64,000 nucleotides of DNA from Patescibacteria group bacterium. GTDB lineage: Bacteria; Patescibacteriota; Minisyncoccia; 2-02-FULL-40-12; IGHO2-01-FULL-4-A. Of the stretch, positions 3,572 through 58,520 are shown one piece after another. The stretch's first letter is position 1; the number at the start of each line of letters is the position of its first letter. The stretch is from NCBI GenBank assembly GCA_038064915.1, contig JBBTSB010000009.1, forward strand, positions 20,773 to 84,772, read 5' to 3'. The notes under the pieces are model-generated. The model saw nothing but the letters and a program-made list of their open reading frames with translations, was not told where the DNA came from and searched no databases. Both the position numbers and the translations under genes were made by a program.

Positions 3572-5671
3572 TTACTTCTTTCCTTCAACTATCTGGGTAG
3601 CGACACTCTGAGGAACCTCCTCGTAATACGCGAATTCCATAGTACTCGTCCCGCGGCCTTGGGTCAGCGATCGGAGCGTCGTGGCATAGCCAAACATTTC
3701 CGAAAGCGGGACTTTGGATTTGATGACTTTGAGATTGAGCGGTGAGCGATCAGCCATTTCCTCAATGCGTCCGCGGCGTGAGCTCAAGTCTCCCGTAATT
3801 TCTCCCAAAAAATTGTCCGGCATGATGACTTCCACATTCATGATCGGCTCGAGCAGGATCGGCTTGGCGCGCTTTGCCGCCTCCTGAAATGCCATATTGG
3901 CAGCGATTTTAAATGCGATTTCGGATGAGTCCACGTCGTGGTATGAGCCATCATAAACGGCAACTTTGATGTCCACCATCGGGAACCCAGCCGTGACACC
4001 TTTGTCGAGAGCTTCGATCACGCCTTTTTCTACAGCCGGAATAAACTCACGCGGGATGACACCGCTTTTGATTTCGTCGATAAATTCAAATCCTTTGCCC
4101 TTCTCATTGGGTTCCAGGCGCAGCCACACGTGTCCGTACTGACCACGTCCACCGGATTGCTTGATGTACTTGCCTTCTGCTTGAGCCGTTTGCTTGATGG
4201 TCTCGCGATATGCAACCTGCGGCTTGCCGACATTTGCTTCCACGGTAAACTCCCGACGCATGCGATCGACAAGGACATCGAGGTGAAGCTCGCCCATACC
4301 GGAGATAATCGTTTCCCCCGTCTCAGGATCGCCTTTTATTCTAAAAGTGGGGTCCTCGTCCGAGAGCTTGCGAAGTGCAATACCCATTTTTTCCTGGTCG
4401 GCTTTTGTCTTGGGTTCGATGCGAAGGGAGATAACCGGCTCGGGAACATCGATACCTTCCAAAATCACCGGCGTCTCTACTGCGCACAACGTGTCGCCCG
4501 TCTTAGTGTCTTTCATGCCCACCGTTCCCGCGATGTTGCCAGCGGTGATTTCTTTGATTTCTTCGCGTTGGTTGGCATGCATGCGCAAAATACGACTGAT
4601 GCGCTCCTGGTTGCCGGTACGAGTATTTAACACATAGGAGCCTGAACTCAACTTTCCACTGTAAACGCGAAAATACGTCAGCGAGCCGACATAGGGATCG
4701 GTTGCCGTCTTAAAGGCAAGGGCACGAAACGGTTCCTCTTCAGAAGCATGGACTTCTATTTCCCCACCAGTTTTTTGATCTATGGCTTTGATGGCGGGAA
4801 TATCGGTCGGCGCAGGAAGGTAGTAGGCTACCGCATCGAGTACGAGCTGAACGCCTTTATTCTTGAGAGCGGAACCGCAAAAGACCGGATACATCTTACC
4901 CGCGATGACCGCCTTGCGGGTAATAGCGCGAAGTCGATCAAGGGAAATTTCTTTGGCCTCCAAATATTCGCTCATTGCTTGATCGTCGTTTTCGACGATT
5001 TTTTCTATCAAAACAGCGCGTTCTTTTTTCGCTTCTTCCTGCAAATGTGCGGGGATTTCTTTGCTCTTGATAATTTTTTCACCTTTATCGCCCTCAAATG
5101 TCACGTATTCCATCGTGAGCAAATCCACAATTCCTTTGAACTGGTCTTCGTGACCGTCGGGTAGTTGAAATTTCACACCGTTCGGGCTCAAACGCGTGAG
5201 GATGGATTGGTATGATCGCTCAAAGCTTGCGCCCAAGCGATCGAGTTTATTGATAAAACAAAGTCGCGGCACGTTGTAGTCGTCAGCATAGCGCCAGTTG
5301 GTTTCCGACTGCGGCTCCACGCCAGCGACGCCGTCAAATACTACGACGGCTCCATCCAATACTCTCAATGATCTTTTCACTTCAATAGTGAAGTCGATGT
5401 GTCCGGGTGTGTCGATAATATTCAGTCTTACCTTTTCTCCTCCGGATGTTGGAGCCCAATACGCAGTCGTAGCGGCAGCCGTGATAGTGATGCCACGTTC
5501 ACGCTCCTGCTCCATCCAGTCCATGACGGTGTCCCCCTCGTGCACTTCACCGATTTTGTGTGACATGCCGGTATAAAAAAGCACCCGCTCGGTGGTGGTG
5601 GTCTTACCGGCATCAATGTGCGCGATGATCCCGATGTTTCGTATTTTTTCTAAAGGATAAATTTCTTCCAT
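3572..5671 (-). CDS. fusA: Elongation factor G
   Basis: GTPase G-domain ([23 protein letters not shown]) and EF-G domains II to V. Confidence 0.95.
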
Positions 5672-7197: not shown

Positions 7198-7383
7198 ATG
7201 GCAACACGATGTCCGCGATGCGGCAAAAAACCCATGATGGCTACCAAACGCAAGCTCTTGCGCGGCCACTATAACCCTGTCAATCGATATCGAAAATATC
7301 CGAATTTGCAGTGGGCGCTGGTCGCCGGCAAACGCACCATGATCTGCACAAGTTGTATCAAAACACTAGCAAAAACTGTCTAA
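7198..7383 (+). CDS. rpmB: 50S ribosomal protein L28 (zinc-ribbon form)
   Basis: MATRCPRCGKKP...NLQW...ICTSCIKT matches the L28 pattern with CxxC...CxxC. The upstream extension back to 7141 is rejected. Confidence 0.7.
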   Translation: MATRCPRCGKKPMMATKRKLLRGHYNPVNRYRKYPNLQWALVAGKRTMICTSCIKTLAKTV

Positions 7384-7466: not shown

Positions 7467-8468
7467 TTAGAACCCTACAAGTTCCGGTTCGTTTTCAAGC
7501 ATGATGCCGGTTTTTTGGTAGACAATGTCGCGTGCTTTTTTGAAAAGAGTCAGCACGTCATCGGCGGTGGCGTTGTTGAAATTGATGATATTGATCACTT
7601 GGAGTTCTGAAAGTTTTGCACCGCCTACGGTCAAACCTTTGAGATCGCAAACTTTGTCGAGAAGATAACCGGCGGGGACTTTAACCCCCTCTGTTTCCCC
7701 CTTACCATAAGGGGGAAGGGGGGTTCGAAATCCAGGAGCACCAGCAGGAAGCTTCGCGTACTGCTCTTCCGTAATAATCGGATTCTTGAAAAAACTTCCC
7801 GCGCTCCAGTATTCGCTTGGATCCTGGCCTTTTGATTTACGAATCGCAATCACCTGATCGCGCATTTCTTGCAACGTACCCGGTTTCAATCCATATGTGG
7901 TATTCGGTTCCCCATTTTTTGAAAGCTTGAGCGTAAGTCCCAAAACCACATATCTGCCTTTTTGAACATTAAAAATACTCTTCCGGTATCCAAATTTGCA
8001 TTCGTCATTGGAAATTGAAAATTGAGAATTGGAAATTGTGTCATAAACGTCTACTGACGTTATGACACTGCGTGCCTCCTGGCCGTACGCACCCACATTC
8101 TGTATTGCCAATCCTGCCACATCGCCAGGTACAAACGACAAATTCTCCGTTCCCCATAGCCCGGCGTCGACTATTCTCTGTGCGCACTCATCCCAGTTTT
8201 CTCCGGCCGCGATGCTCACCGTCTCACCGTCAATCGCAAAGCCTTTGAGCTTTGGATGGATCACCAGCCCATCAAAGCCTTTATCGCTGACAAGCATATT
8301 CGATCCCCCGCCCAAAATTAATACGGGAAGGTTTTTTTCTTGAGCAAAAGAAACTGCTTCTCGCAGTTCCTCTATGTTTTCTATTTCAGTATAAAAAGCT
8401 GCCGGGCCTCCGATGTGAAACGTCGTGAGTTCAAAAAAGGAGACCTTCGTCGATACGTGCATAGTCAT
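7467..8468 (-). CDS. murB: UDP-N-acetylenolpyruvoylglucosamine reductase MurB
   Basis: FAD-binding domain (NLPVLILGGGSNMLVSD) and MurB C-terminal domain. Start placed at MTMHV, which has an AAGGA RBS. Overlaps the ndk 3' end. Confidence 0.85.
   Translation of the reverse strand: MTMHVSTKVSFFELTTFHIGGPAAFYTEIENIEELREAVSFAQEKNLPVLILGGGSNMLVSDKGFDGLVIHPKLKGFAIDGETVSIAAGENWDECAQRIVDAGLWGTENLSFVPGDVAGLAIQNVGAYGQEARSVITSVDVYDTISNSQFSISNDECKFGYRKSIFNVQKGRYVVLGLTLKLSKNGEPNTTYGLKPGTLQEMRDQVIAIRKSKGQDPSEYWSAGSFFKNPIITEEQYAKLPAGAPGFRTPLPPYGKGETEGVKVPAGYLLDKVCDLKGLTVGGAKLSELQVINIINFNNATADDVLTLFKKARDIVYQKTGIMLENEPELVGF
7696..7714. repeat. Perfect hairpin CCCCCTTA-CCA-TAAGGGGG inside the murB coding sequence; partial copy of the intergenic double-hairpin repeat
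   Basis: Sequence similarity extends to ...TAAGGGGGAAGGGGGGTTCGA versus the 14397-14425 copy ...TAAGGGGGATTCGAGGGGGTT. Encodes PLPPYGKGE in MurB. Confidence 0.5.
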
Positions 8469-13121: not shown

Positions 13122-13301
13122 ATGGAAATTCTAAGAATCTGTCCGCTTCACAATGTGGCATTTGATAAGTTCTGTTCAAAGTGCTACCTACGGGACCCCC
13201 GCTGCCCTCAGTGCGGGAGTTCCAACTTTGGAAGTGAAGACGAGGGGCTTGTGATCAAGTGGACCTGCTACGATTGCAGGCACACCTGGACCGAGCAATA
13301 G
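13122..13301 (+). CDS. Small Cys-rich zinc-ribbon protein (59 aa), PRCP-motif family, paralog A
   Basis: RBS GGAGGTGG 5 nt before the ATG. Sequence MEILRICPLHNV...CSKC...DPRCPQCG...WTCYDCRHTW. GC-rich coding sequence. Followed by a conserved hairpin. Confidence 0.5.
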   Translation: MEILRICPLHNVAFDKFCSKCYLRDPRCPQCGSSNFGSEDEGLVIKWTCYDCRHTWTEQ

Positions 13302-13323
13302 CTCCTCCCGCCCTCGCGGACGG

Positions 13324-13376
13324 CAGCCCTCGCGCATTGCGCTTGGAGCTCGCGTCGCGGGGGCTGTTGTTTTTAT
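13324..13376 (+). terminator. Structured hairpin repeat copy 1: 11 bp stem CAGCCCTCGCG/CGCGGGGGCTG, conserved 21 nt loop, then a T-run
   Basis: About 90% identical over roughly 80 bp to 14273-14350, including the stop-codon context TAGCTCC and the loop CATTGCGCTTGGAGCTCGCGT. Confidence 0.6.
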
Positions 13377-13437
13377 TGAATGCAATTGGATTGTAACGAT
13401 CACCACACCCACCATATCCTTAGTTCTACATTCCAGA

Positions 13438-13460
13438 CCGGCCGTGTCAGAATATAGAAT
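13438..13460. repeat. Inverted repeat left arm CCGGCCGTGTCAGAATATAGAAT abutting the stop codon of the PaaX-like gene
   Basis: 21/23 match to the reverse complement of 14000-14022. Confidence 0.7.
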
Positions 13461-13999
13461 CACGAAAGTTTATATTTTTTCTCAAATTTTTTATTGAGCT
13501 CGTCTCCCAACGTAGGAACAACAATCAGATGCACAGAAGAGCGGAGCATGAGAATATCAACAAGCTCACTGATTTCTTTATCGCAAACATGAGGAGTAAT
13601 AAAGACACTCTGTTGCAATTTGGTACAATCCCACTCTTTGAGTTTATCACGAAAAAGCTTACGCGCATTCCTTCTTTTTTCAGGAATATCGAATATAACG
13701 ATACGCCATTGGTGGTCCCATCGTTTTCCCGATGGATCAAATGAAAGCTCCTGCAGTCGATAGTAATCAATGCGCGCACTTCCCTTTTTGGTTATATGGA
13801 TGCCATTTTGTTTCTGTTGTATAAATCCATCCCGCTCAAGACGCTTGAGTGCTTGATTGATTTCCCATTCCCGATAACCTGGGCTCGATCGCATCATTTT
13901 GTTGGAAAGTGAATTACGACTAAAAGAGACTTCCATGATATACATCAACTCTCCTAAAGCTAGGAAAATATTTTTCACAATATTTTGTCCTTTTCCCAT
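13460..13999 (-). CDS. PaaX-like transcriptional regulator (winged helix plus PaaX_C / Cas2-fold-like C-terminal domain)
   Basis: N-terminal wHTH-like segment (EWEINQALKRLERDGFIQQKQNGIHITKKG). C-terminal W-DHQW-RIVIFDIPEKRRNARKLFRDKL...QQSVFITP matches the PaaX_C pattern. AT-rich, unlike the flanking small genes. Confidence 0.55.
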   Translation of the reverse strand: MGKGQNIVKNIFLALGELMYIMEVSFSRNSLSNKMMRSSPGYREWEINQALKRLERDGFIQQKQNGIHITKKGSARIDYYRLQELSFDPSGKRWDHQWRIVIFDIPEKRRNARKLFRDKLKEWDCTKLQQSVFITPHVCDKEISELVDILMLRSSVHLIVVPTLGDELNKKFEKKYKLS

Positions 14000-14022
14000 A
14001 TTCTATATTCTAGCACGGCCGG
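14000..14022. repeat. Inverted repeat right arm ATTCTATATTCTAGCACGGCCGG abutting the ATG of the PaaX-like gene
   Basis: Reverse complement matches 13438-13460. Contains the -10-like TAGAAT/TATAGAAT immediately upstream of the ATG, so a leaderless transcript is possible. Confidence 0.7.
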
Positions 14023-14093
14023 TTCCAAATATATAACTACGTTTTGTTCACAATAAACTCTCTTTCTCTTAGGATTTTGGCGAGGAGGTCATC

Positions 14094-14273
14094 ATGAAAG
14101 ATGATCGAGAAACCTGGCCTCGATGTCCCTATGTGGGACTACCCGGAGGTGAGTGGTGCGACGGGCACACGTCGGATGGACTCTGCCCACCGGGATGCTC
14201 CGAGCATGTCGCCAATGTTCGGGATGAGAGGGAGAAGCGCCTCCATGAGGCTCTCACTCCGGATTTTCAGTAG
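14094..14273 (+). CDS. Small Cys-rich protein (59 aa), PRCP-motif family, paralog B
   Basis: RBS GAGGAGG 6 nt before the ATG. Sequence MKDDRETWPRCPYVGLPGGEWCDGH...GLCPPGCSEH. Hand-translated; it is below the ORF-track size cutoff. The 14101 frame in the ORF track runs through the terminator repeat and is rejected. Confidence 0.45.
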   Translation: MKDDRETWPRCPYVGLPGGEWCDGHTSDGLCPPGCSEHVANVRDEREKRLHEALTPDFQ

Positions 14274-14288
14274 CTCCCGCCCTTGCGG

Positions 14289-14347
14289 ACAGACAGCCCT
14301 CGCGCATTGCGCTTGGAGCTCGCGTCGCGAGGGCTGTCTGTTTTTAT
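14289..14347 (+). terminator. Structured hairpin repeat copy 2: 16 bp stem ACAGACAGCCCTCGCG/CGCGAGGGCTGTCTGT, same conserved loop, then TTTTTAT
   Basis: Near-identical to copy 1. Confidence 0.6.
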
Positions 14348-14364
14348 ACAACAACTCACCCTAA

Positions 14365-14416
14365 CCCTCTCTTATAGATAAGAGAGGGAATTTCTTCCCC
14401 CTTATCTATAAGGGGG
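14365..14416. repeat. Double-hairpin palindromic repeat, copy 1 (CCCTCTCTTATAGATAAGAGAGGG ... CCCCCTTATCTATAAGGGGG)
   Basis: Two perfect hairpins. Reverse complement of the copy at 57795-57852. Sits at the 3' end of ligA. Confidence 0.8.
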
Positions 14417-14427
14417 ATTCGAGGGGG

Positions 14428-16374
14428 TTACTGAACGAGTTTCAGAAATTCTCCTTCATTCAATATCTTCACCCCCAGTTTCTTTGCCTTCTCGGCTTTA
14501 CTTCCCGGTTCACTGCCGACCACCACATAGCTCGTTTCTTTGGAGACCGATGACGACGCATCGCCACCGTGGGAACGGACGAGTTCTTCTGCCGCTTCTC
14601 GACTCATGCTTTCCATCGATCCCGTAAATACAAACGTCTTGCCTTTGAGTTTATTGGACTTTTGTGTAGATTCCACCGGTAAAATCGCAATATGTTTTTT
14701 TAATTTAGTAATGAGCCTGTCGTGTGCAAACCAATCAAAAATACTTTTGGCTACGACTCCCCCAATGTCTTTAATAGCGGCGAGCTCTTCGAGCGAAGCC
14801 GACCCGAGCTTCTCGAGGGTTCCGAATTTTCGCGCGAGATCGACAGCTGTTTCTGATCCCACATGCGGAATTCCCAATCCATAAATAAAGCGATCCAGGG
14901 CTATTTTTTTGTGAGACTGAATTGAAGCAACTGCGTTTTCTGCCGATTTGTCGGCAAAGCGATCGAGGTTGAAAAAATCTTCTTTGGTGAGCGTAAACAA
15001 ATCCGCTGCGTCGCGCACGAGTCCAGCATCCATCAGCGCGTCTATGATCTTTGGCCCGATGCCGTCCATGTCAAACGCGCCTTTGGAAATAAAATGATAC
15101 ATGCCTTCACGTTTGATGGCGGGGCAATTTTTGTTGACGCATTTATACGCAACCTCCCCTTCAACACGCTTGATTGTTTCATTGCACGCAGGACACTTCC
15201 TGGGAAATTGAAAATTCTTTTCCTTGCCCGTGCGCAGTTCGGTGATGGCTTTTTTGATATCAGGAATAACATCCCCTGCACGGCCGACAACAACCGTGTC
15301 ACCGATTTTGACATCAAGACGTTTTATTTCATCTTCGTTGTGAAGCGTCGCGCGGGAAACCGTCGTGCCGCCGATTTCCACAGGCTCCAGTACTGCGACG
15401 GGGGTAAGCGTTCCCGTGCGGCCGACGCTGACAATGATGTCGTTGAGCTTGGTCGTCGCCTCTCGCGGTGAAAATTTGTACGCGATCGCGCCCCGCGGCG
15501 TCTTGCCGATGACGCCCAGCTTGCGGAACATCGCCTCATCATTGATTTGCACGACAATTCCGTCTATTTCGTAGTTCAGTGATTCGCGATGTTTCTCCCA
15601 GTAATCCCGAAATTCCTGTACTTCCTTGAGATCTTTGCAAAATTTATTGTGCGGATTTGTTTTAAAGCCCAGATCATGCAAAATCCTGTGCTCGTCTTCA
15701 TGCGTCTTTTGTCCCAGATCCGTAATGAGCGAATATGCGTATGAATCCATCTTGCGTGAAGCGGTTATTTTTGGATCAAGCTGACGAATGGAGCCAGCGG
15801 CAAGATTGCGTGGATTTGCATACCCTTCTGCTTTAAATTCTTCAAATTCTTTTTTAGTAATAAAAACTTCGCCCCTGAGCACAATCTCCTCCTCATGGTC
15901 AATGGTCAATGGTACAGCGTCAATGGTTCTGAGATTTTGAGTCACATTTTCGCCTACGGTACCATCTCCCCTTGTTGCTCCTATTTTTAATATCCCTTTT
16001 TCATAGACTAATTCAATCGCAAGACCATCCAACTTCAGCTCACAGTAGTATCCCGAATCCCCCGCCTTGGGGTCGATGCGCCTAATACGTTCAAGCCATT
16101 CGCCCAAATCGTCCTCATTAAATGCATCTAAAAGCGAGAGCATGCGAGTTGGATGCGTGAATTTTTCAAACTTATCAAGTGGGGTGCCACCCACGCGTTG
16201 CGTTGGCGAGTCAGGTGTGACAAGCTTCGGAAACTGCGTTTCCAAGTCAAAAAGCTCTTTTTTGAGGCTATCTTCAACGCTTTCTTCTACGAGTGGTTTG
16301 TCCAAAACCAGCCGGTGGTAGCGGTATTTATTGATAAGATCGCGAAGCTTTTTTATTCGTAAATTTGGATCCAT
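14428..16374 (-). CDS. ligA: NAD-dependent DNA ligase LigA
   Basis: Adenylation KxDG motif (CELKLDGLAIEL), OB fold, Zn finger, HhH and a C-terminal BRCT domain. Confidence 0.9.
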   Translation of the reverse strand: MDPNLRIKKLRDLINKYRYHRLVLDKPLVEESVEDSLKKELFDLETQFPKLVTPDSPTQRVGGTPLDKFEKFTHPTRMLSLLDAFNEDDLGEWLERIRRIDPKAGDSGYYCELKLDGLAIELVYEKGILKIGATRGDGTVGENVTQNLRTIDAVPLTIDHEEEIVLRGEVFITKKEFEEFKAEGYANPRNLAAGSIRQLDPKITASRKMDSYAYSLITDLGQKTHEDEHRILHDLGFKTNPHNKFCKDLKEVQEFRDYWEKHRESLNYEIDGIVVQINDEAMFRKLGVIGKTPRGAIAYKFSPREATTKLNDIIVSVGRTGTLTPVAVLEPVEIGGTTVSRATLHNEDEIKRLDVKIGDTVVVGRAGDVIPDIKKAITELRTGKEKNFQFPRKCPACNETIKRVEGEVAYKCVNKNCPAIKREGMYHFISKGAFDMDGIGPKIIDALMDAGLVRDAADLFTLTKEDFFNLDRFADKSAENAVASIQSHKKIALDRFIYGLGIPHVGSETAVDLARKFGTLEKLGSASLEELAAIKDIGGVVAKSIFDWFAHDRLITKLKKHIAILPVESTQKSNKLKGKTFVFTGSMESMSREAAEELVRSHGGDASSSVSKETSYVVVGSEPGSKAEKAKKLGVKILNEGEFLKLVQ

Positions 16375-32400: not shown

Positions 32401-33062
32401 AGTTTTAGAATTGTTTCTAGTTGTTTTGGTTTTACGGGGCCGATGCGGACGATTTTTGGCTTGACGGACGAGTAGTCGATGATGGTAGACGCGAGTGAGG
32501 GTTGGAGATTACCTACATCGAGCATCAAATCAGGTTGCCACATGCGAGGTTTAAAATCTTCGATGACCGCATTACTATTCCACGCTGCAGTGTCTTCTCC
32601 TGCCATATTAGCAGAAGTTGAGATCAAAGGATAGCCAAACTTTGCCATGAGCTTGTCCGTGAGCTCAAAGTCCGGAATACGAAGCCCTACGTTTGGTTCG
32701 CCTGCAGTCACAATGGAAGGAATAACATCACGCTTGGGCAAAATCACCGTGATCGCTCCAGGCCAAAGCTGTTCCAGAATCGGCTCGAGTTTTGGAGGCA
32801 CAAAGGCGAGTTCTTTGATCCATTGCATATTGCGAGCAATCACCGAGAGCGGTTTTTCAAGCGGCCGGTCTTTTATTCTGTAGATAGTCTCAACAGCTTT
32901 AAAATCCGTAGCATTGCAACCGATGCCATAGATCGTATCGGTGGGATAGATCACCGTTCCGCCCTCTTTGAGGACTTTTACAGCCTCTCGAATGGCGTCA
33001 GTGTAATCAGCCCCGACGCTCCGGTCGGGGTTAAGTAATAAGTTTACTTTTATTATCTTCAT
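32397..33062 (-). CDS. tsaC: L-threonylcarbamoyladenylate synthase (YrdC/Sua5 domain)
   Basis: YPTDTIYGIGCNA YrdC motif. Confidence 0.8.
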   Translation of the reverse strand: MKIIKVNLLLNPDRSVGADYTDAIREAVKVLKEGGTVIYPTDTIYGIGCNATDFKAVETIYRIKDRPLEKPLSVIARNMQWIKELAFVPPKLEPILEQLWPGAITVILPKRDVIPSIVTAGEPNVGLRIPDFELTDKLMAKFGYPLISTSANMAGEDTAAWNSNAVIEDFKPRMWQPDLMLDVGNLQPSLASTIIDYSSVKPKIVRIGPVKPKQLETILKL

Positions 33063-33882
33063 ATTTTCGCAGTATTTCTGCCTCCGATGACCCCAAATGA
33101 AACGCTAGCATATTATCATTGTAAACCAAATGCCCGCCGGGGCGGATGACGTTTGCCTTTGATTCGATACGGTGGCGCTGGTAACGGGCGGACCATGCCT
33201 CCAGTTTCGTTCCTATGAAAATCTCACAGAGCCATTGCAAAGCAAACGAAAGACCTTGGGGAACGATTTTATTTTCTGGCATATTCCAAACAGATGCATA
33301 ATCACGAACCCAAGTATTTGCCTCACGGAACTTTTTCAAGTCGTCTCTATCCACGGCAATCAGTGGTACCAAATTCGCATACAAGTGCGCCGTGTACATA
33401 CTATGAAACGGGATGTGCAAAGACTGGTCAGTAACAAAGTGATTGGGGCAGATTTTGTCCGGCGCCACGCGATCCTCATGGCGACGTGCCTTACCTAGTA
33501 CTATCAAAAGCCCCATGACCAACAAGCGAACCGTCCAAATATGTCCGTGCTTGGCAACGACGATGACATCCAGGTCGCTAAGCTCGTCGGCGTTTTCCAT
33601 GGAAAGGGATCCGGATACAAACACTACTCGCGCAAATGGCACAAAACGCAACCACCACGCGACGCGACGGGCAATTTGCCACTTTCTACGCGAAATGCGC
33701 TGACGTTCCTTGCGAAGCGGTACAAGGTATTCTCTATCAAAGAGGTAGTAGTATCCATCCCGCTCACTCACGAGGTCGGACCTCAAAGAAGTCCCGAGGT
33801 CCGACATCAGGAAAGGTCGGTCAAGGACATCATAGTAAGCCAGTTGTTTGAGCACATTCTGCATACACGCACCATAGCGCAT
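33031..33882 (-). CDS. Nucleotidyltransferase-domain protein (Pol-beta superfamily), function unknown
   Basis: hG[GS]x9-13Dh[DE]h signature: VFVSGSLSMENADELSDLDVIVV. Confidence 0.5.
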   Translation of the reverse strand: MRYGACMQNVLKQLAYYDVLDRPFLMSDLGTSLRSDLVSERDGYYYLFDREYLVPLRKERQRISRRKWQIARRVAWWLRFVPFARVVFVSGSLSMENADELSDLDVIVVAKHGHIWTVRLLVMGLLIVLGKARRHEDRVAPDKICPNHFVTDQSLHIPFHSMYTAHLYANLVPLIAVDRDDLKKFREANTWVRDYASVWNMPENKIVPQGLSFALQWLCEIFIGTKLEAWSARYQRHRIESKANVIRPGGHLVYNDNMLAFHLGSSEAEILRKYEDNKSKLIT

Positions 33883-33932
33883 ATCTCGACATTTTTGAAG
33901 GAAAGGTATAGCCTAAGCGTAAGGAGGCCACC

Positions 33933-34103
33933 ATGGAACTTCCCAGGTGTCCCAAGTGCGGCGCACCGCTCGATGTAACCATCATCGAGCGCAGTTGTGG
34001 GTGTTGTCGGGATCAAAACGGGATCATCTACTCGTGCTGGGTGCACGGGGAGATCGAGCGCATCCCGCTCCCACAGCACCAGCGGCAAAGTACCGCCGCG
34101 TGA
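33933..34103 (+). CDS. Small Cys-rich zinc-ribbon protein (56 aa), PRCP-motif family, paralog C
   Basis: RBS AAGGAGG 5 nt upstream. Sequence MELPRCPKCGAPL...SCGCC...SCWVHGE. GC-rich. Hand-translated; in a different frame from the rejected uvrC N-terminal extension. Confidence 0.45.
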   Translation: MELPRCPKCGAPLDVTIIERSCGCCRDQNGIIYSCWVHGEIERIPLPQHQRQSTAA

Positions 34104-34117
34104 CCCGCCCTCGCTCC

Positions 34118-34148
34118 CCCCGGGCTGCAGTTCAATCGCAGCCCGGGG
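34118..34148 (+). terminator. Perfect 11 bp hairpin CCCCGGGCTGC-(9 nt loop)-GCAGCCCGGGG between small ORF C and the uvrC RBS
   Basis: Post-stop context CCCGCCCTCGC is shared with the hairpin repeats at 13305 and 14276. No T-run follows. Confidence 0.5.
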
Positions 34149-34156
34149 ACAGGAAA

Positions 34157-35281
34157 ATGATCAATCAATTACCAGACAACATTCCCCGCACTCCCGGGGT
34201 ATATTTTTTTAAAAACGCCAAGGGCGCCATCGTTTATATTGGCAAAGCGCTCAACCTCCGCAACCGCCTCCGTCAACATCCGATGTTGACACGAGCGGAT
34301 AAGCTCGAATGGCAGGAGGTTGGTTCCGAAATCGAAGCACTCATTCTTGAATCGCAGTGGATCAAGCGCTACAAACCCTACTATAATATCTCTCTTCGAG
34401 ACGATAAAAATTATGTTTATGTACAATTCACGGATGAAGAGTTTCCAAAAGTTTTTGTTACACATAGAAATGGAATAGGCCCTTTCACCAGTTCCACGGA
34501 GTTGCGTGCCGCACTAAAAGCCATCCGCAAACTCATCCCCTACTGTACGTGTAAGCAAAAACATAACCGACCCTGTTTAAATGCGCACATAGGCAAATGC
34601 ATCGGCGACTGCTGTCTGAAAAACCCCAAACCCGTCTACAAGCAATACCAAAAAAATATCAAATTAATCAAAGACATTTTTTCTGGAAAAAAGAAAGCAT
34701 TAAAGTCATTCCCACGAGTTTTTGAAAATATCCGCGTGATTAAAGAAATTGCTGGACGTGAATCGGCCGTCGTAGAATTAGAAAACACATTTAAATTAAA
34801 AAATATAAAAAGGATAGAGGGGTACGATATCTCAAATGTCCAGGGTAAATTTGCTACCGGCTCGATGGTGGTCTTTGAAAACGGATATCCAAACAAATCT
34901 GAATATAGAAAATTTAAGATCAACCCGACCGCGTCCGCCGAAGCCTTGGCGAAGGCGGATGATACTAAGATGCTTGACGAAATGCTTGCCCGAAGATTTT
35001 CTCACCATGATTGGCCACGGCCAGATGTCATTTTGATCGATGGCGGCATCGCGCAGTTTAATATCGCCCAAAAGTATTTTTCACCTGTCTTGAGCATCGC
35101 CAAAGGCAAACAAGAAATTTTCTCAAGTACGCTCCCTGAGCCATTGGCTATTAGCTATTTGCCATCAGCCGTAGCTCACCTCCTCCAGCACATCGACGCT
35201 GAAGCCCACCGTTTTGCCATCACGTACTATAGAAAATTGCATAAAAAGACTCTTTCTGGTAGTATGAAAACACATGTTTAA
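34157..35281 (+). CDS. uvrC: Excinuclease ABC subunit C homolog (short form: GIY-YIG plus RNase H-like endonuclease domain)
   Basis: GIY-YIG (GVYFF...IVYIGKA.NLRNRL), a Cys cluster and the UvrC C-terminal endonuclease domain. Lacks the UvrB-binding and HhH regions. RBS AGGAAA. Confidence 0.75.
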   Translation: MINQLPDNIPRTPGVYFFKNAKGAIVYIGKALNLRNRLRQHPMLTRADKLEWQEVGSEIEALILESQWIKRYKPYYNISLRDDKNYVYVQFTDEEFPKVFVTHRNGIGPFTSSTELRAALKAIRKLIPYCTCKQKHNRPCLNAHIGKCIGDCCLKNPKPVYKQYQKNIKLIKDIFSGKKKALKSFPRVFENIRVIKEIAGRESAVVELENTFKLKNIKRIEGYDISNVQGKFATGSMVVFENGYPNKSEYRKFKINPTASAEALAKADDTKMLDEMLARRFSHHDWPRPDVILIDGGIAQFNIAQKYFSPVLSIAKGKQEIFSSTLPEPLAISYLPSAVAHLLQHIDAEAHRFAITYYRKLHKKTLSGSMKTHV

Positions 35282-40167: not shown

Positions 40168-41100
40168 ATGAATAGAATCTTTTCCGGCATCCGTCCTTCA
40201 GGCAAACTCCATCTTGGCAACTATCTGGGTGCCATCAAAAACTGGCTCGCCCTGAGCGAAGTCGAAGGGATTGATCAGGCTTTATTCGCCGTAGTAGACT
40301 TGCATGGCATTACCACGCCGTACGATCCCTCTATTTATCACAATGGCGTCATGGATGTGATTTTGGACTACATGGCAGCTGGAATAAATCCCGACAAATC
40401 GCTTTTGATTCGCCAGTCGAAAGTCCATCAGCATGCAGAACTCGCATGGCTTTTTAATACAATCACTCCGGTCAGCTGGCTCGATCGCTTACCAACATAT
40501 AAAGAAAAAATCGAACAGACAGGCGGCAAATACAACCACATGGGTATACTCGACTACCCCGTCCTCATGGCGGCAGATATTTTGCTTTACAAATCAAACC
40601 TCGTTCCAGTCGGCGATGATCAAAAAGCGCACATAGATCTGACCAACGAAATCGCCAAAAAGTTTAATCACATGTTCGGCGAGATGTTTGAGCCGGTAAA
40701 AACAGTAAAAGCCGAGGGAGCAAGAATTATGTCGCTCAAGGATCCGACCAAAAAAATGTCCAAGACTGGCGATGAGGGCATCGCGCTCTCGGATGATCCG
40801 GATACCATCAATGCCAAAATAAAAAAAGCTGTCACTACACCCGAAGGCATCGCGAACCTTTCTCTAATTTACAAACTCCTGGCAAATGAAGAGCCCCAGA
40901 TCGAAGAAGGAAATTATGCCGATTTCAAATCCAAGCTCGCCGACGTCGTCGTCGAATTCCTCAAACCCTTCCAATCCCGCCGCGCAAAGCTTGCCGCCGA
41001 CATGGGCGAAGTAGAACGTATCTTGCAAAAATCAGAAGCAAAGGCTATGGTAATCGCACAGACCACGTTGGCGGAAGTCCGCCAAAAGATGGGTCTGTAA
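40168..41100 (+). CDS. trpS: Tryptophan--tRNA ligase
   Basis: Class I HIGH-like motif (GKLHLGNYLG) and KMSKT. Confidence 0.9.
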   Translation: MNRIFSGIRPSGKLHLGNYLGAIKNWLALSEVEGIDQALFAVVDLHGITTPYDPSIYHNGVMDVILDYMAAGINPDKSLLIRQSKVHQHAELAWLFNTITPVSWLDRLPTYKEKIEQTGGKYNHMGILDYPVLMAADILLYKSNLVPVGDDQKAHIDLTNEIAKKFNHMFGEMFEPVKTVKAEGARIMSLKDPTKKMSKTGDEGIALSDDPDTINAKIKKAVTTPEGIANLSLIYKLLANEEPQIEEGNYADFKSKLADVVVEFLKPFQSRRAKLAADMGEVERILQKSEAKAMVIAQTTLAEVRQKMGL

Positions 41101-41113
41101 AGGAGGAAATAAG

Positions 41114-41227
41114 ATGAAGCGACCTCGAAACTCGTTTCTCATCGCCCTGGGCGTGACAGTGTACGCCGCGCTCGCCTTCACCGCTAGCAATTTAGCGCTG
41201 GCACCCTTCATCTACACGGTCTTCTAG
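41114..41227 (+). CDS. Small hydrophobic peptide (37 aa)
   Basis: Strong SD AGGAGG 6 nt upstream. Single transmembrane segment. Hand-translated. Confidence 0.35.
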   Translation: MKRPRNSFLIALGVTVYAALAFTASNLALAPFIYTVF

Positions 41228-41235
41228 GAGGAACC

Positions 41236-41376
41236 GTGTACATTCCGGCTTGGATCGGAGTTCCTTTGTTGTTGGCGGTTTCAACGATGTGGGCATGGGT
41301 CCCATGGATTGAGGGCCTTATCTCTCGACAGAAGACGTCGAGTGATCACGTCTTCCCCGATGACGACGATCAGTAG
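41236..41376 (+). CDS. Small hydrophobic peptide (46 aa, GTG start) with an acidic tail DDDDQ
   Basis: SD GAGGAGG 5-6 nt upstream. Trp-rich transmembrane segment. Confidence 0.3.
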   Translation: MYIPAWIGVPLLLAVSTMWAWVPWIEGLISRQKTSSDHVFPDDDDQ

Positions 41377-41462
41377 CATGATCGTCAAGTTCCTGATCCC
41401 CGGCCGCGCAGGCGCGTCTCCCCGAGGCCGCCGCCCCGGGGATTCACGCTATTTAGAGACAA

Positions 41463-41490
41463 TTGACCGACTTTTTGCAGGTGCTATAAT
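41463..41490 (+). promoter_or_regulatory. Near-consensus sigma-70 promoter with extended -10 (TTGACC, 16 nt spacer, TGcTATAAT)
   Basis: The ATG at 41503 lies about 12 nt downstream of the -10 element, so the mRNA is leaderless or nearly so. Confidence 0.45.
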
Positions 41491-50285: not shown

Positions 50286-51160
50286 AGTCTATTGAGATAG
50301 CTCACCGCTGACAGCAGTGCCGTGACTCCCTGCCCTGCTGCGATTGGGTTTTGCTTATATTGCATATTAGTGACATCACCTGCGGCATACAATCCAGGAA
50401 TATTGGTCTCGCAACTTTGATTGATAACAATCTCACCAAAATTGTTTTTTTCTACGCCCTCGGGCGCCATGGCCGAATTGGCGATCATGCCAATGTGGAC
50501 AAAAATCCCATCCACCGTTATTTCTCTATCATTATACCGCAAACCGGTAACAAATTCATTACCAATGATCTCTTTGGTCAAGGCTGAATATATGATCTCA
50601 ACATTTGGCTTATTCTGCAAGTTATCAATCAACACAGCATCACCCTTGAACTGTGGGTTCTTGTTGATCACGTACACTTTTTTACACAAATCAGCCAACA
50701 TCAAAGCGGATTCCAGCGCTGAATTTCCACCCCCAATGGTTGCCACGACTTTACCAGCAAAAATGGGACCGTCGCACGTCGTGCAGTAGCTCACGCCTTT
50801 GTTCCGAAATTCTTTCTCACCGGGAATATTGAGCTCCCGCGGATGCGCACCGGTGGCGATGATGACTGTTTTTGTTTCATAACCGTCCACCAAAAAAGAC
50901 CCATTCTTCTTCTCGATCTTTTTTATCTCAATGTCCTCATCGATCGAGACTCCTAGAAACTCTAAATGCTCGCGGAATTTTTGAGCGAGCTCAATGCCAT
51001 TGGTTTCCGGAATGCCCGGCCAGTTGCCGATTTCCCCGGATGTAGCAAGCTCACCATTGAAATCCTTGGTAACAACTTTAAAATTCAGCCCTCGCCGAGC
51101 GGCATAAATAGCGGCGGCAGTACCGGCGGTAGAACCGCCGATGATTACAAGGTCGTACAT
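50282..51160 (-). CDS. trxB: Thioredoxin-disulfide reductase
   Basis: FAD motif GGSTAGTAAAIYAAR, redox Cys pair CTTC and NADPH motif. Confidence 0.85.
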   Translation of the reverse strand: MYDLVIIGGSTAGTAAAIYAARRGLNFKVVTKDFNGELATSGEIGNWPGIPETNGIELAQKFREHLEFLGVSIDEDIEIKKIEKKNGSFLVDGYETKTVIIATGAHPRELNIPGEKEFRNKGVSYCTTCDGPIFAGKVVATIGGGNSALESALMLADLCKKVYVINKNPQFKGDAVLIDNLQNKPNVEIIYSALTKEIIGNEFVTGLRYNDREITVDGIFVHIGMIANSAMAPEGVEKNNFGEIVINQSCETNIPGLYAAGDVTNMQYKQNPIAAGQGVTALLSAVSYLNRL

Positions 51161-51210
51161 AGTAAATGACTAATAATTAATTACTAATGATTAATCAATA
51201 ACCAAATGGC

Positions 51211-51582
51211 TCAATGGTCATTAATTTTATTTTCCCGGCTTGATTTAATAATCTTAGCAAAGATCAAATTCAACTCTTTTGCTTCCTGCCATAACTTTCG
51301 AGCTGATTCTTTGCTCTCGGGAACAGAAGCGCCAATCATATGAAACCAATACATGCTTTCACGAACCTCTTTCTTGCAAATCCCGATTTTGTGGACAAAA
51401 TCTTTCTTCGATTCCGCATTATTGGCCTCACAATAGTTTGCGCCAACGCTGGTACCAGATCGGACCAGCTGACTGATCAACGGTCTGGTGATACTATTTT
51501 CGGCTATTTTCCTGCAAAAATCAAGGACCATGATACCAAACTTTGCGGTACGTTCTTCGAGGTCAAATTTCTTATCGGTCAT
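51211..51582 (-). CDS. Four-helix-bundle protein (TIGR02436-type, rRNA IVS-protein family)
   Basis: GTSVGANYCEA...SKKDF...EVRESMYWF pattern. Confidence 0.65.
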   Translation of the reverse strand: MTDKKFDLEERTAKFGIMVLDFCRKIAENSITRPLISQLVRSGTSVGANYCEANNAESKKDFVHKIGICKKEVRESMYWFHMIGASVPESKESARKLWQEAKELNLIFAKIIKSSRENKINDH

Positions 51583-52106
51583 AGCTGAAATTGGTCAACG
51601 ATTTTTTGAGCAACCTCATTGGGTTGTAACAAATTGGTATCCAACGTCAAGCTATCCGTATGCTGCACTTTTGCAAATAAATTAAACTTGTCCATAAGTT
51701 CCTTGAGTTTTTCTTGGGTCTTTACTTTGTGGAATTTTTCTCTGCTTGGTTCATTCACACGCTTCATCAATACCTCTTCGGGTGCTATGAGCTGCACAAA
51801 GTATATCGTTCCCCGGTTGCGTTTGATAATATCGGTCAGTGAATCAATCCAAGGCTGGTCACTAATATCATAGACGTAGGTAAATATGACACCAGGAATC
51901 TCTGCTTTCGCAGCTGTATCGATGATATCTTCTCGAATCCTATTGACCAAAGGCGCACGAGCAGGATGTCCCCACTCAAAAAAGATGCCAATCATATCAC
52001 TGATAATATGATTGTGAAAGTTTTTGTAGCCAGTGAGTTTCTCAAGCTCATTTGCTACCGTAAGCTTTCCAACAGCAGGTGGTCCATATAGAAAGATGAG
52101 ATTCAT
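51579..52106 (-). CDS. P-loop NTPase, small kinase-like protein
   Basis: Walker A YGPPAVGKLT; about 175 aa. Confidence 0.55.
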   Translation of the reverse strand: MNLIFLYGPPAVGKLTVANELEKLTGYKNFHNHIISDMIGIFFEWGHPARAPLVNRIREDIIDTAAKAEIPGVIFTYVYDISDQPWIDSLTDIIKRNRGTIYFVQLIAPEEVLMKRVNEPSREKFHKVKTQEKLKELMDKFNLFAKVQHTDSLTLDTNLLQPNEVAQKIVDQFQL

Positions 52107-52151
52107 TTGCTCATTGATTAGTCATTAGTAATTCGTTATTAGTCATTTTCT

Positions 52152-53447
52152 ATGTTCTATTGTATCATGATTTGTATGCGAAAACATCTTGCGCTGATTG
52201 TCATTTTACTGGCTAGTATCGCTGTCCATTTTGCATTTTTCGGACATCCCCGACAAACCGTTTTTGATGAAGTCCACTTTGGCAAATTTGTTTCCGGTTA
52301 CTTCACGCACGAGTATTTTTTTGACATCCATCCCCCGCTGGGCAAGCTGATCATTTCCGGAGCAGCAAAGATGGCGGGGTTTGAGCCGGGCTTTAGTTTT
52401 GGACAAATTGGCGAGCAGTTTCCCAATGCAACGTACAAGGCGATGCGGCTACTTCCCAGCATCGCTGGCACATTGCTTCCTGTAGTGATTTTCTTACTGC
52501 TCCTTGAGCTGAAGTTTTCGAAAGGCGCTGCCATGACTGCCGGTTTGCTCATCGCTTTTGATAATGCTCTTCTGGTGCAATCCCGTTTTATGCTTCTGGA
52601 CTCGTTTTTGTTGCTCTTGGGATTTCTCTCATGGTGGTTGTATGCAAAATTCCGCAATTCTCCCACTACTCACTATTCACTATTCACTTCTGCTGCCATC
52701 TTTGCCGGCGCCGCAGCATCAGTAAAGTGGACGGGGATAACGTTTCTTGCGGTAATCGGCATTCTTGAGCTTATTCGTGTCATTCGAGAGCGAACTCGTT
52801 TTCTATCACTAGTGGTTTTGATTTTTGTGCCATTTTTGGTCTACTACGCACTATTCACTATCCACTTCTCCCTCCTATCACAGCCAGGTCCCGGTGATGC
52901 GTTCATGTCGCAGGATTTTCGCGACGGAAAACTCTCTTCGTTCGAAAAATTTAATGAACTCAATAGCGAGATGTACCGGGCTAACGCACGATTGACGGCG
53001 ACCCATCCCTACTCGAGCAAGTGGTACCAATGGCCATTCATGGTAAAGGGTATTTACTATTGGAACTCCGCCAATGAAAAAATTTATCTTTTGGGAAATC
53101 CCATTATTTGGTGGGCTTCGACGTTTGGCATTTTATATATCCTTATCAACAGCGTTACTGCGAGAAATACGATGTATTGGCTTTTGAGCGGTGCCTATCT
53201 GCTGAATATACTTCCATTCATCGGAATAGATAGGGCAATGTTCCTCTATCACTACTTTACAGGACTCATCATCGCTATTATTGCCCTTGTGTATTTTGTC
53301 GATTCATTGAAAAACCGCAATAAAATCTTTGCGGTTTTGCTGGCGGCAAGTTTTGTGGTTTTCCTCTACTTCGCTCCCCTCTCATATGGACTACAACTTT
53401 CTGAAAAAGCCTTCCAGCATCGGATGTGGTTGGAGAGTTGGAAGTAA
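52152..53447 (+). CDS. GT39-family (PMT/ArnT-like) polyprenyl-phosphate-dependent glycosyltransferase
   Basis: N-terminal DE motif region (VFDEVHFGKF...FDIHPPLGKL) and a polytopic membrane protein. Confidence 0.7.
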   Translation: MFYCIMICMRKHLALIVILLASIAVHFAFFGHPRQTVFDEVHFGKFVSGYFTHEYFFDIHPPLGKLIISGAAKMAGFEPGFSFGQIGEQFPNATYKAMRLLPSIAGTLLPVVIFLLLLELKFSKGAAMTAGLLIAFDNALLVQSRFMLLDSFLLLLGFLSWWLYAKFRNSPTTHYSLFTSAAIFAGAAASVKWTGITFLAVIGILELIRVIRERTRFLSLVVLIFVPFLVYYALFTIHFSLLSQPGPGDAFMSQDFRDGKLSSFEKFNELNSEMYRANARLTATHPYSSKWYQWPFMVKGIYYWNSANEKIYLLGNPIIWWASTFGILYILINSVTARNTMYWLLSGAYLLNILPFIGIDRAMFLYHYFTGLIIAIIALVYFVDSLKNRNKIFAVLLAASFVVFLYFAPLSYGLQLSEKAFQHRMWLESWK

Positions 53448-53454
53448 AAAGCCA

Positions 53455-53483
53455 GGGAGAGTCAAGGCGCTTACGACTCTCCC
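53455..53483. terminator. Hairpin GGGAGAGTC-(11 nt loop)-GACTCTCCC between convergent genes
   Basis: 9 bp perfect stem. Confidence 0.4.
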
Positions 53484-53701
53484 TCTTCACCCAGAGAACA
53501 GGTGAATTCCGCCAGGGCTTTGAGGCCCTCGTCTCGCGTCTTGGCCTTGATGATCTTGACGAGTTGCGAAGGCTTGGGAATTACTCGGCGCACTTTCCAG
53601 GTGTGCCGAAACTGACCCTGACGGTAATCCACGCGATAGCGCTGATCGTTTAGCTCAAAAATCCAGCGCACCGCGGTTAGTACCGTGAGGAGATCAGGCA
53701 T
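53471..53701 (-). CDS. Hypothetical small protein (76 aa)
   Basis: ORF only. Confidence 0.3.
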   Translation of the reverse strand: MPDLLTVLTAVRWIFELNDQRYRVDYRQGQFRHTWKVRRVIPKPSQLVKIIKAKTRDEGLKALAEFTCSLGEEGES

Positions 53702-53721
53702 GGCCTCCCTCCTTACTCTCC

Positions 53722-57740: not shown

Positions 57741-57794
57741 GGGGAGAGGATATCATACTAAACAACTCCCTCCAACTTCAACAACCCCCTCGAT

Positions 57795-57852
57795 CCCCCT
57801 TATAGATAAGGGGGAAGAAATTTCTGCTCCCTCTCTTATCTATAAGAGAGGG
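57795..57852. repeat. Double-hairpin palindromic repeat, copy 2 (CCCCCTTATAGATAAGGGGG ... CCCTCTCTTATCTATAAGAGAGGG)
   Basis: Reverse complement of the 14365-14416 copy with a 6 nt insertion (TCTGCT). Lies between the FolT-like gene and folC. Confidence 0.8.
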
Positions 57853-58520
57853 TTGGGGTGAGATAGTGCGTATTTCTGATTCACGAGTGGCAAGACTCTC
57901 GGCACCTTTTTCGCCACGAGTGCCAACACATTGTTCATGACAAGATACGAGACGGCGATACCGAGAGCAAAAATCGCTCGCTCTTTTATGACTATAGGAA
58001 TAAGACCAGACCAGACGGAAGCCGGCAAGGGATTAAAGATCGCCCAGAGTGCGCCTCCCACGGCATGGGCGGTAAAGGTCGCGCCAAGCGCACGGGCGAG
58101 AAGCCAACGATCCTGCAGAAAGTACGCGACAATAGGGATCAACCAAAGCAAAGCGAAGTACCAGGCTTGACGGCTTTCCGGCATGATCAAAAAAGCTATT
58201 ATTGCCGCAACCGGAACGATGACATTGAAGAGGCTTTTGCGGGAAAAATACAAGGCGGCTGCAAGTGGAGTGATGAGACGAATAGCCATTACCGCATCAA
58301 ACGAACTTACGCCTTTTACAGCAAGGTTAATCAATTCCATTCCCGCGACAGCCACGACTCCCCAGAGCGATCCCAAAAATCCCGTGGCTATTGGCGCAAA
58401 CAGATCAAAAAGCGTAAACGCCGACCGTGAACCTTCTAGCTTTGCGACCGGAACCTGCAATGCTACAAAACCGAGAACCGCAAACAATACGATGAACAGA
58501 ATTTTTTGTTTATTTGACAC
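57840..58520 (-). CDS. Membrane protein, candidate ECF-transporter S component (folate-family context)
   Basis: 5-6 transmembrane helices. Located between folC and a DHFR-family gene. The functional assignment is inferred from context only. Confidence 0.4.
   Translation of the reverse strand: MSNKQKILFIVLFAVLGFVALQVPVAKLEGSRSAFTLFDLFAPIATGFLGSLWGVVAVAGMELINLAVKGVSSFDAVMAIRLITPLAAALYFSRKSLFNVIVPVAAIIAFLIMPESRQAWYFALLWLIPIVAYFLQDRWLLARALGATFTAHAVGGALWAIFNPLPASVWSGLIPIVIKERAIFALGIAVSYLVMNNVLALVAKKVPRVLPLVNQKYALSHPNPLL

Follow-up and report, generated by a model that had tools for sequence, protein, structure and literature searches.

The uvrC gene in the 64,000-nucleotide stretch of DNA analyzed here (the window) is preceded by a lineage-specific insertion spanning positions 33921 to 34150. 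We give about an even chance to the explanation that this block is a foreign-looking mini-cassette, composed of a Shine-Dalgarno (SD) sequence, an orphan open reading frame with a CPxCG motif (ORF C), and a hairpin, which landed in the short spacer before uvrC. An earlier note on this DNA had described ORF C as the third member of a dispersed family of small genes, each followed by a related hairpin. The comparisons reported below leave the ORF and its hairpin in place and largely refute the family.

The contig originates from Hainich groundwater (well H51, 0.1 µm fraction), and its UvrC (MEK7616175.1) is annotated at NCBI from a Patescibacteria-group MAG. In the ORF C/hairpin region, the window matches two contigs from independent assemblies with 100% identity, so the block is not an assembly artefact; all recovered copies of the block are likewise 100% identical, leaving no population variation to analyze. 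Our comparison set consisted of the window and 88 fetched loci, besides protein libraries and metagenome and viral scans.

Organization of the region upstream of uvrC

The gene upstream of uvrC (33031 to 33864, minus strand) is divergently oriented and encodes a conserved hypothetical protein of 277 amino acids when read from the ATG at 33864, with an alternative 283-amino-acid call starting at 33882. Its Pfam matches are weak and nucleotidyltransferase-like, and its N terminus (...LAYYDVLD) aligns with those of its relatives. The 5' coding part of this gene contains a perfect 10-bp GC-rich hairpin (33775 to 33805), located in a stretch that is variable among relatives. Next to its start codon lies the first part of the expanded spacer (33865 to 33920), which has a GC content of 45% and in which a promoter scan found no consensus σ70 promoter.

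The block itself begins with the SD sequence AAGGAGG (33921 to 33927, plus strand), located 5 nt before the ATG of ORF C; the heptamer occurs only nine times in the window, this site included, and three of the nine precede an ATG. ORF C (33933 to 34103, plus strand; ATG at 33933, stop at 34101 to 34103) encodes 56 amino acids, MELPRCPKCGAPLDVTIIERSCGCCRDQNGIIYSCWVHGEIERIPLPQHQRQSTAA, with the expected tryptic peptides CPKCGAPLDVTIIER, DQNGIIYSCWVHGEIER, and IPLPQHQR. A perfect 9-bp hairpin within ORF C (33967 to 33991, plus strand) is part of an unusually structured region (190 nt, z of about -3.3). Directly 3' of the stop codon follows the C-rich 11-mer CCCGCCCTCGC (34104 to 34114, plus strand) and then a perfect 11-bp GC hairpin (34118 to 34148, plus strand; stem 34118 to 34128 paired with 34138 to 34148, 9-nt loop), with a folding energy of -25 kcal/mol and a z-score of -5.4. 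The 8-nt linker ACAGGAAA (34149 to 34156) separates this hairpin from the ATG of uvrC (34157 to 35281, plus strand), a short homologue of 374 amino acids whose start at 34157 was assigned by frame check. The coordinates, length, SD sequence, and GC richness that the earlier note gave for ORF C, as well as its perfect 11-bp hairpin ending 8 nt before uvrC, are thus all confirmed.

In composition, the block stands out from its surroundings, with 64% GC against 43% and 48% in the flanking genes and a window mean of 47%, and GC content measured over 120 nt reaches its maximum for the window (0.717) inside the block. We rejected a MITE or REP-type element as an explanation, since the block has no terminal inverted repeats and no second copy in the window or in the fetched loci. 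An integron cassette was rejected as well, given that no RYYYAAC ... GTTRRRY (attC) sites were present and that the only GTT of the hairpin region, the GTTCAAT in the loop, is a misfit; neither a cassette array nor an integrase was found near the block.

The block is absent from related loci

The gap between the upstream gene and uvrC ranges from -2 to 44 nt in eight related loci and measures 292 nt in the window (33865 to 34156), and the ORF C block is absent from all eight. Because the gap is so small in the relatives and so much longer in the window, with a core of 64% GC, we conclude that the block is a lineage-specific insertion. Five relatives whose UvrC is 68 to 79% identical (L003, L081, L082, L083/L084, and L085) share a conserved 28-nt spacer, TGGTGGTACAATACCGCAAGAAACCACA. 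This spacer holds the extended -10-like element TGGTACAAT, located 17 nt before the uvrC ATG, and no SD sequence (positions 3973 to 4000 in L003, and the same in L081 to L085). The high conservation of the spacer and the position of this element imply that the leader of uvrC is very short, and the same may hold for the divergent gene. Among the more distant relatives, L086 has a gap of 44 nt, and the start codons of the two genes overlap in L087 and L088. We also considered that the window might retain part of the ancestral 28-nt spacer but rejected this, as the three candidate alignments made by eye, one of which put the ORF C ATG at the old uvrC ATG, did not stand out in a shuffle test (P = 0.73).

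A further locus from the same well, L004 (UvrC 64% identical), carries a different insertion of approximately 900 nt at the same site. It contains a receiver-like gene and a STAS-like gene and ends in a hairpin of -34 kcal/mol, 14 nt before the uvrC ATG. This insertion is independent of the one in the window and has the same layout of a hairpin before uvrC. Elsewhere in the clade, L003, the closest genome relative, has a 201-amino-acid ORF of 65% GC (2293 to 2898) downstream of the conserved hypothetical gene, a position that is taken in the window by a directly adjoining Sua5/YrdC-like gene. It therefore seems that the clade has acquired GC-rich accessory insertions repeatedly.

A putative zinc-ribbon peptide encoded by ORF C

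Several features bear on whether ORF C is a gene. Its translation contains three Cys/His patterns, namely, CPKCG at residues 6 to 10, CGCC at residues 22 to 25, and CWVH at residues 35 to 38, and six of the eight TGY triplets are in the ORF C frame. Only 0.4% of dinucleotide shuffles of the region yield a CPxCG motif in any frame. Across the six frames of the entire window, four such motifs were observed against 0.34 expected; two of the four, the only ones outside the small ORFs compared here, lie in recognizable protein types, namely, ribosomal protein L28 (TRCPRCG, 7198 to 7383) and a prepilin-peptidase-like ORF. The GC content by codon position (0.59, 0.52, and 0.73) follows the pattern of coding DNA from a high-GC organism. 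In contrast, the codon-usage score of ORF C is -0.10, compared with 0.29 ± 0.12 for host genes (first percentile, 0.015); this atypical usage counts against coding, yet it also fits a foreign origin. Furthermore, all six frames are fairly open in the GC-rich DNA of the block, and the gene callers on record never called ORF C. An AlphaFold model computed from the single sequence is of low confidence (pLDDT of 53) and shows a beta-hairpin at residues 23 to 35 as its only feature. On balance, the CPxCG motif, the in-frame cysteine codons, and the SD sequence suggest that ORF C is more probably a real, or recently real, coding sequence than a chance frame, and its product is probably a CPxCG zinc-ribbon peptide, with zinc binding predicted from the cysteine pattern.

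CPxCG is a known, generic motif shared by small zinc-finger proteins described as "unrelated ... outside the zinc finger patterns"; this class is frequent in archaea (8% of small proteins), rarer in bacteria (1.5%), and exemplified by Brz of Halobacterium salinarum (PMC2253796). With 56 amino acids, ORF C lies below the limit of this class (<100 amino acids), and both ORF C (CPKCG) and the previously noted ORF A (CPQCG) carry the exact motif, which ORF B (CPYVG) lacks. The class also has a second pattern, [CH]x2-3[CH], 7 to 40 residues away, and ORF C offers two, with C22xxC25 at a distance of 12 residues and C35xxH38 at 25. It thus resembles the CPxCG-related proteins, which have 50 to 70 amino acids, one exact CPxCG, and a second Cys/His pattern (PMC2253796), also in being encoded in an intergenic region beside another gene. 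Apart from the patterns, ORFs A and C likewise have no relationship with one another, as is typical of a set that forms a motif class and no homologous family; ORF C itself is without any relatives. A further likeness is to LysW-type and other single zinc-ribbon mini-proteins, with which ORF C shares an N-terminal xCPxCGAxLxV knuckle followed by a beta-hairpin. However, the best PDB match (5k2m_E) has an E value of 0.11 and covers the knuckle alone, and Pfam and NCBIfam gave no family-level match.

Searches for relatives of ORF C

A word-indexed search of 5.8 billion proteins revealed no homologue of ORF C, and its exact sequence, like that of ORF A, is absent from a collection of 15 billion proteins, in which ORF B is found as a singleton only. 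Three matches (P0001, P0002, and P0003) emerged when 1.84 billion representatives were searched exhaustively with phmmer. We rejected P0001 and P0003 as homologues, since their library E value of 2.5e-14 arises from adding six near-identical repeats; the score sums four to six repeats, and a single repeat reaches 28.9 bits, which is not significant against a library of 2.4e11 residues. The repeat units of both proteins, which resemble beta-propeller blades, contain MH(V/A)CYRDxxGLIxDAWYDG and have no Pfam assignment. Residues 7 to 40 of ORF C are 35% identical to one such repeat (CCRDQNGIIYSCWVHG against CYRDRNGLIQDAWYDG), but, unlike ORF C, the repeat proteins have no cysteine knuckle. P0002 looks like a low-complexity repeat artefact and was rejected too. 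The same holds for a metagenome match (L079), which lies antisense inside a 511-amino-acid ORF and had been preselected by an 8-mer, so that we attribute it to chance.

Scans of viral contigs produced no match to ORF C, and blastn of the region against phages and plasmids yielded only chance matches of 26 to 43 nt (E values of 0.2 to 0.9). Pfam, NCBIfam, PHROGs, and PDB returned sub-threshold knuckle matches only, and the remaining four frames of the block had no match in Pfam. Nothing reached the gathering score in Rfam, where the matches with an E value of ≤10 scored at chance level (12.8 to 20 bits, compared with gathering scores of 50 to 95). ORF C is therefore an orphan, with no homologue in the protein, metagenome, viral, and family sets searched, and since there is no homologue, purifying selection on its frame cannot be assessed.

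The proposed family of ORFs A, B, and C

ORF A with its terminator tail (13122 to 13376, plus strand; stop at 13299 to 13301) encodes a double zinc ribbon of 59 amino acids, and ORF B with its tail (14094 to 14347, plus strand; stop at 14271 to 14273) encodes 59 amino acids with no CxxC knuckle. The two tails are 93% identical over 74 nt and consist of a long hairpin and a T-run, which identifies them as terminators. The frames chosen by the gene caller at this locus were, instead, one antisense to ORF A and an alternative one overlapping ORF B.

The earlier note had joined these two ORFs with ORF C into three dispersed copies of one gene-plus-hairpin unit and had proposed comparing the three peptides with each other and with databases by profile search. 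Neither comparison bears the claim out. In BLASTP, the alignment of C stops at 8 residues with A (PRCPxCG) and at 9 with B, while A and B align over 23 residues with an E value of 0.95; tblastn of ORF A gave an E value of 0.6 for C in a 0.73-Mb database, leaving no significant similarity beyond the generic CxxC knuckle. The profile searches found no family for ORF C, and none of the three ORFs has relatives elsewhere; no further copies of this type turned up in the 64-kb window, in any of the 88 loci, or in the protein libraries and the scans of metagenomes and viruses. At the DNA level, C aligns best with A over nothing more than the 11-mer (P = 0.09 in local shuffles), and its alignment with B is at chance (P = 0.46). 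The PRCPxCG motif said to be shared is present in A and C, but ORF B reads PRCPYVG and is without the second cysteine; moreover, the motif is generic, with L28 in the same window having RCPRCG. Likewise, the alleged common core of W-C-x2-C/H dissolves into three different arrangements, namely, WTCYDC in A, WCDGH in B, and CWVH in C. The hairpins offer no stronger link, as the single-copy hairpin of C differs in sequence and has no T-run, whereas the tails of A and B end in one; at the DNA level, A and B have these tails in common and nothing else.

What remains in favor of a diverged family of small gene-plus-hairpin modules, spread within the genome, is that PRCP is common to all three peptides and CPxCG to A and C, that the three ORFs are all GC-rich, SD-led, 56 to 59 amino acids long, and followed by a hairpin, and that the C-rich 11-mer recurs. 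The sequence CCCGCCCTCGC is found exactly at 34104 and at 13307 and with one mismatch at 14276, each time 0 to 5 nt after the stop of a small ORF, so the common context after the stops that the earlier note described is exact for C and A and imperfect for B. From local base composition, we roughly estimate the probability of this 11-mer within 10 nt of the C stop at ~1e-4; given that the match was noticed post hoc, its placement after the three stops is suggestive only and we treat it as a curious coincidence. Taken together, the sequence comparisons largely refute the family, which we consider extremely improbable. The related idea of an inserted module fares better in one respect, since a foreign-looking, lineage-specific insertion does lie next to uvrC, although it is not a copy of a family.

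Other small ORFs and repeats in the window

Strong AGGAGG-plus-ATG contexts in the window stand mostly before small, GC-rich, intergenic ORFs with downstream hairpins; core genes seldom have them. These SD-led ORFs comprise ORFs B and C, a tandem pair (41114 to 41376), and a 76-amino-acid ORF (53474 to 53701, minus strand) and are alike in style but not in sequence. The tandem pair consists of hydrophobic ORFs of 37 (41114 to 41227) and 46 (41236 to 41376) amino acids and directly follows a 310-amino-acid ORF (40168 to 41100) whose sequence looks trpS-like. The two peptides resemble type I toxins or small membrane peptides and had no family match, and 3' of them lies a GC-rich region with CCCCGG...CCGGGG (within 41100 to 41470). 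The 76-amino-acid ORF on the minus strand (within 53474 to 53714; 56% GC) has a double SD sequence, AAGGAGagtAAGGAGG, and a canonical terminator after it, and it too had no family match.

Repeats occur in several places of the window. A 179-amino-acid PaaX_M/Cas2-like gene (13460 to 13999, minus strand) is bracketed by 40-nt inverted repeats (13421 to 13460 and 14000 to 14039) that are 80% complementary, and outside these repeats lie ORFs A and B with their near-identical 74-nt terminators; the arrangement at 13421 to 14039 resembles a small module that is mobile or has been duplicated. A REP-like element, built from the tandem palindromes CCCTCTCTTATAGATAAGAGAGGG and TCCCCCTTATCTATAAGGGGGA, recurs in both orientations at no fewer than three sites (14355 to 14435, 57777 to 57862, and 7682 to 7718), and the sole two differences between two assemblies of the organism fall in one of these copies (14363 to 14364). 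Finally, AT-rich inverted repeats of 52 nt (88% complementary) flank a segment of 895 nt (51157 to 52155).

The hairpin and the start of uvrC

The 11-bp hairpin has no second copy, either in the window or in any of the fetched loci. Like intrinsic terminators, it places a perfect, GC-rich stem immediately 3' of a stop codon, where a small gene ends. However, it differs from these in its 9-nt loop and in having no U-tract on either strand, being followed by ACAGGAAAATGA and, on the other strand, by GGAGCGAGGGCG. Because the U-tract is missing on both strands, we do not regard the hairpin as a canonical intrinsic terminator, and it was not listed by the terminator scan. The terminators of the host in the window are A/T-flanked stems such as AAAAACC...GGTTTTT, and the tails of ORFs A and B have T-runs. 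Terminator hairpins without a U-tract have been described for high-GC bacteria.

On the side of uvrC, the stem sits on the initiation region, in agreement with the placement in the earlier note: the sole purine-rich run ahead of the ATG has its GGGG paired within the stem and, in one prediction, its GGA as well. Domain searches of UvrC identified GIY-YIG, UvrC_M, and RNase H endonuclease domains but no match to the UVR domain. UvrC in this clade has approximately 370 amino acids and no UVR domain (PF02151), which reappears in relatives at ≤49% identity (416 to 430 amino acids). An N-terminally extended UvrC starting from a GTG at 33947 was rejected, as all relatives start at MIK or MIN.

Discussion

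The explanation that we favor is that the cassette (33921 to 34150) would have entered the normally very short spacer between the conserved hypothetical gene and the divergent uvrC and expanded it, bringing along a strong ribosome-binding site, a 56-codon ORF, and a GC-rich, U-tract-less hairpin like those that follow genes in high-GC genomes. In the process, the ancestral uvrC promoter and its short leader, which the relatives retain as TGGTACAAT 17 nt before the ATG, would have been lost. With the promoter and leader gone, uvrC is probably transcribed by read-through from upstream of, or from within, the insert, although the promoter scan gave no consensus promoter. Since the uvrC start lies 8 nt after a stem of -25 kcal/mol, translation initiation is predicted to be damped or structure dependent, and the hairpin should thus reduce or condition uvrC initiation. 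Even so, we infer that the hairpin is most simply the 3' boundary of the acquired gene, acting as a stabilizer or weak terminator, and not an evolved control of uvrC.

An unlikely though credible alternative is that the insertion is non-coding and ORF C fortuitous, the block being either left over from foreign or mobile DNA or an RNA structure of no recognized class. The missing homologues of the peptide, its omission by gene callers, the open state of several other frames, and the atypical codon usage would all be expected in this case. So would the self-complementarity of the region (z = -4.5 for 298 nt and about -3.4 for the ORF C part), with three perfect or near-perfect hairpins within 230 nt. 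Yet when calibrated against 80 ordinary 190-nt windows of the contig, the z-score of the ORF C region falls at approximately the 1st to 3rd percentile, and hence is not unique, so we set it aside as an argument for an RNA element that is not decisive; there was also no credible Rfam match even at an E value of ≤10. A fortuitous ORF would, in addition, have to combine a CPxCG motif found in 0.4% of shuffles, cysteine codons concentrated in its own frame, a perfect SD sequence at optimal spacing, and a codon-position pattern (GC3 > GC1 > GC2) like that of coding DNA, and a mobile relic is at variance with the absence of terminal inverted repeats and of other copies.

If the sequence is instead read from the side of uvrC, the block could be a dedicated cis-regulatory leader in which translation of ORF C, or a factor, opens the stem and exposes the start. 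The position of the hairpin, its pairing with the GGGG of the only purine run, the missing ancestral promoter and leader, and the same layout in L004 are consistent with such a leader, but we find it improbable. The stop of ORF C lies 53 nt upstream of uvrC and 14 nt before the stem, so terminating ribosomes would not melt it, and we found no alternative pairing of the anti-terminator type. Conservation is the rule for regulatory leaders, and this one is not conserved in any relative; moreover, the relatives express uvrC from a spacer without an SD sequence, which makes a dependence on an SD sequence doubtful. A still broader proposal, which we regard as very improbable, is that the divergent start region serves this Patescibacteria clade as a recurrent capture site for compact, GC-rich SD-ORF-hairpin cassettes, with the hairpin gating uvrC and ORF C being a new zinc-ribbon regulator. 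The two independent insertions in the window and in L004 would then both derive from high-GC donors, and the terminal hairpin would put uvrC under the control of read-through and of stem melting.

Under the favored explanation, a foreign-looking mini-cassette captured in the spacer, the analysis sets right a mistaken family assignment and points to one orphan gene, unannotated but probably real, that would encode a small zinc-ribbon protein in a groundwater bacterium not yet in culture. It further suggests that the SD-led, GC-rich mini-genes of this genome behave as accessory insertions, which standard gene callers miss or miscall, and that the DNA-repair gene uvrC has lost a conserved promoter and short leader to one of them. 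If this is confirmed by experiment, uvrC would offer a small example from nature of a core gene whose expression was rewired by gene capture, here in a streamlined genome.
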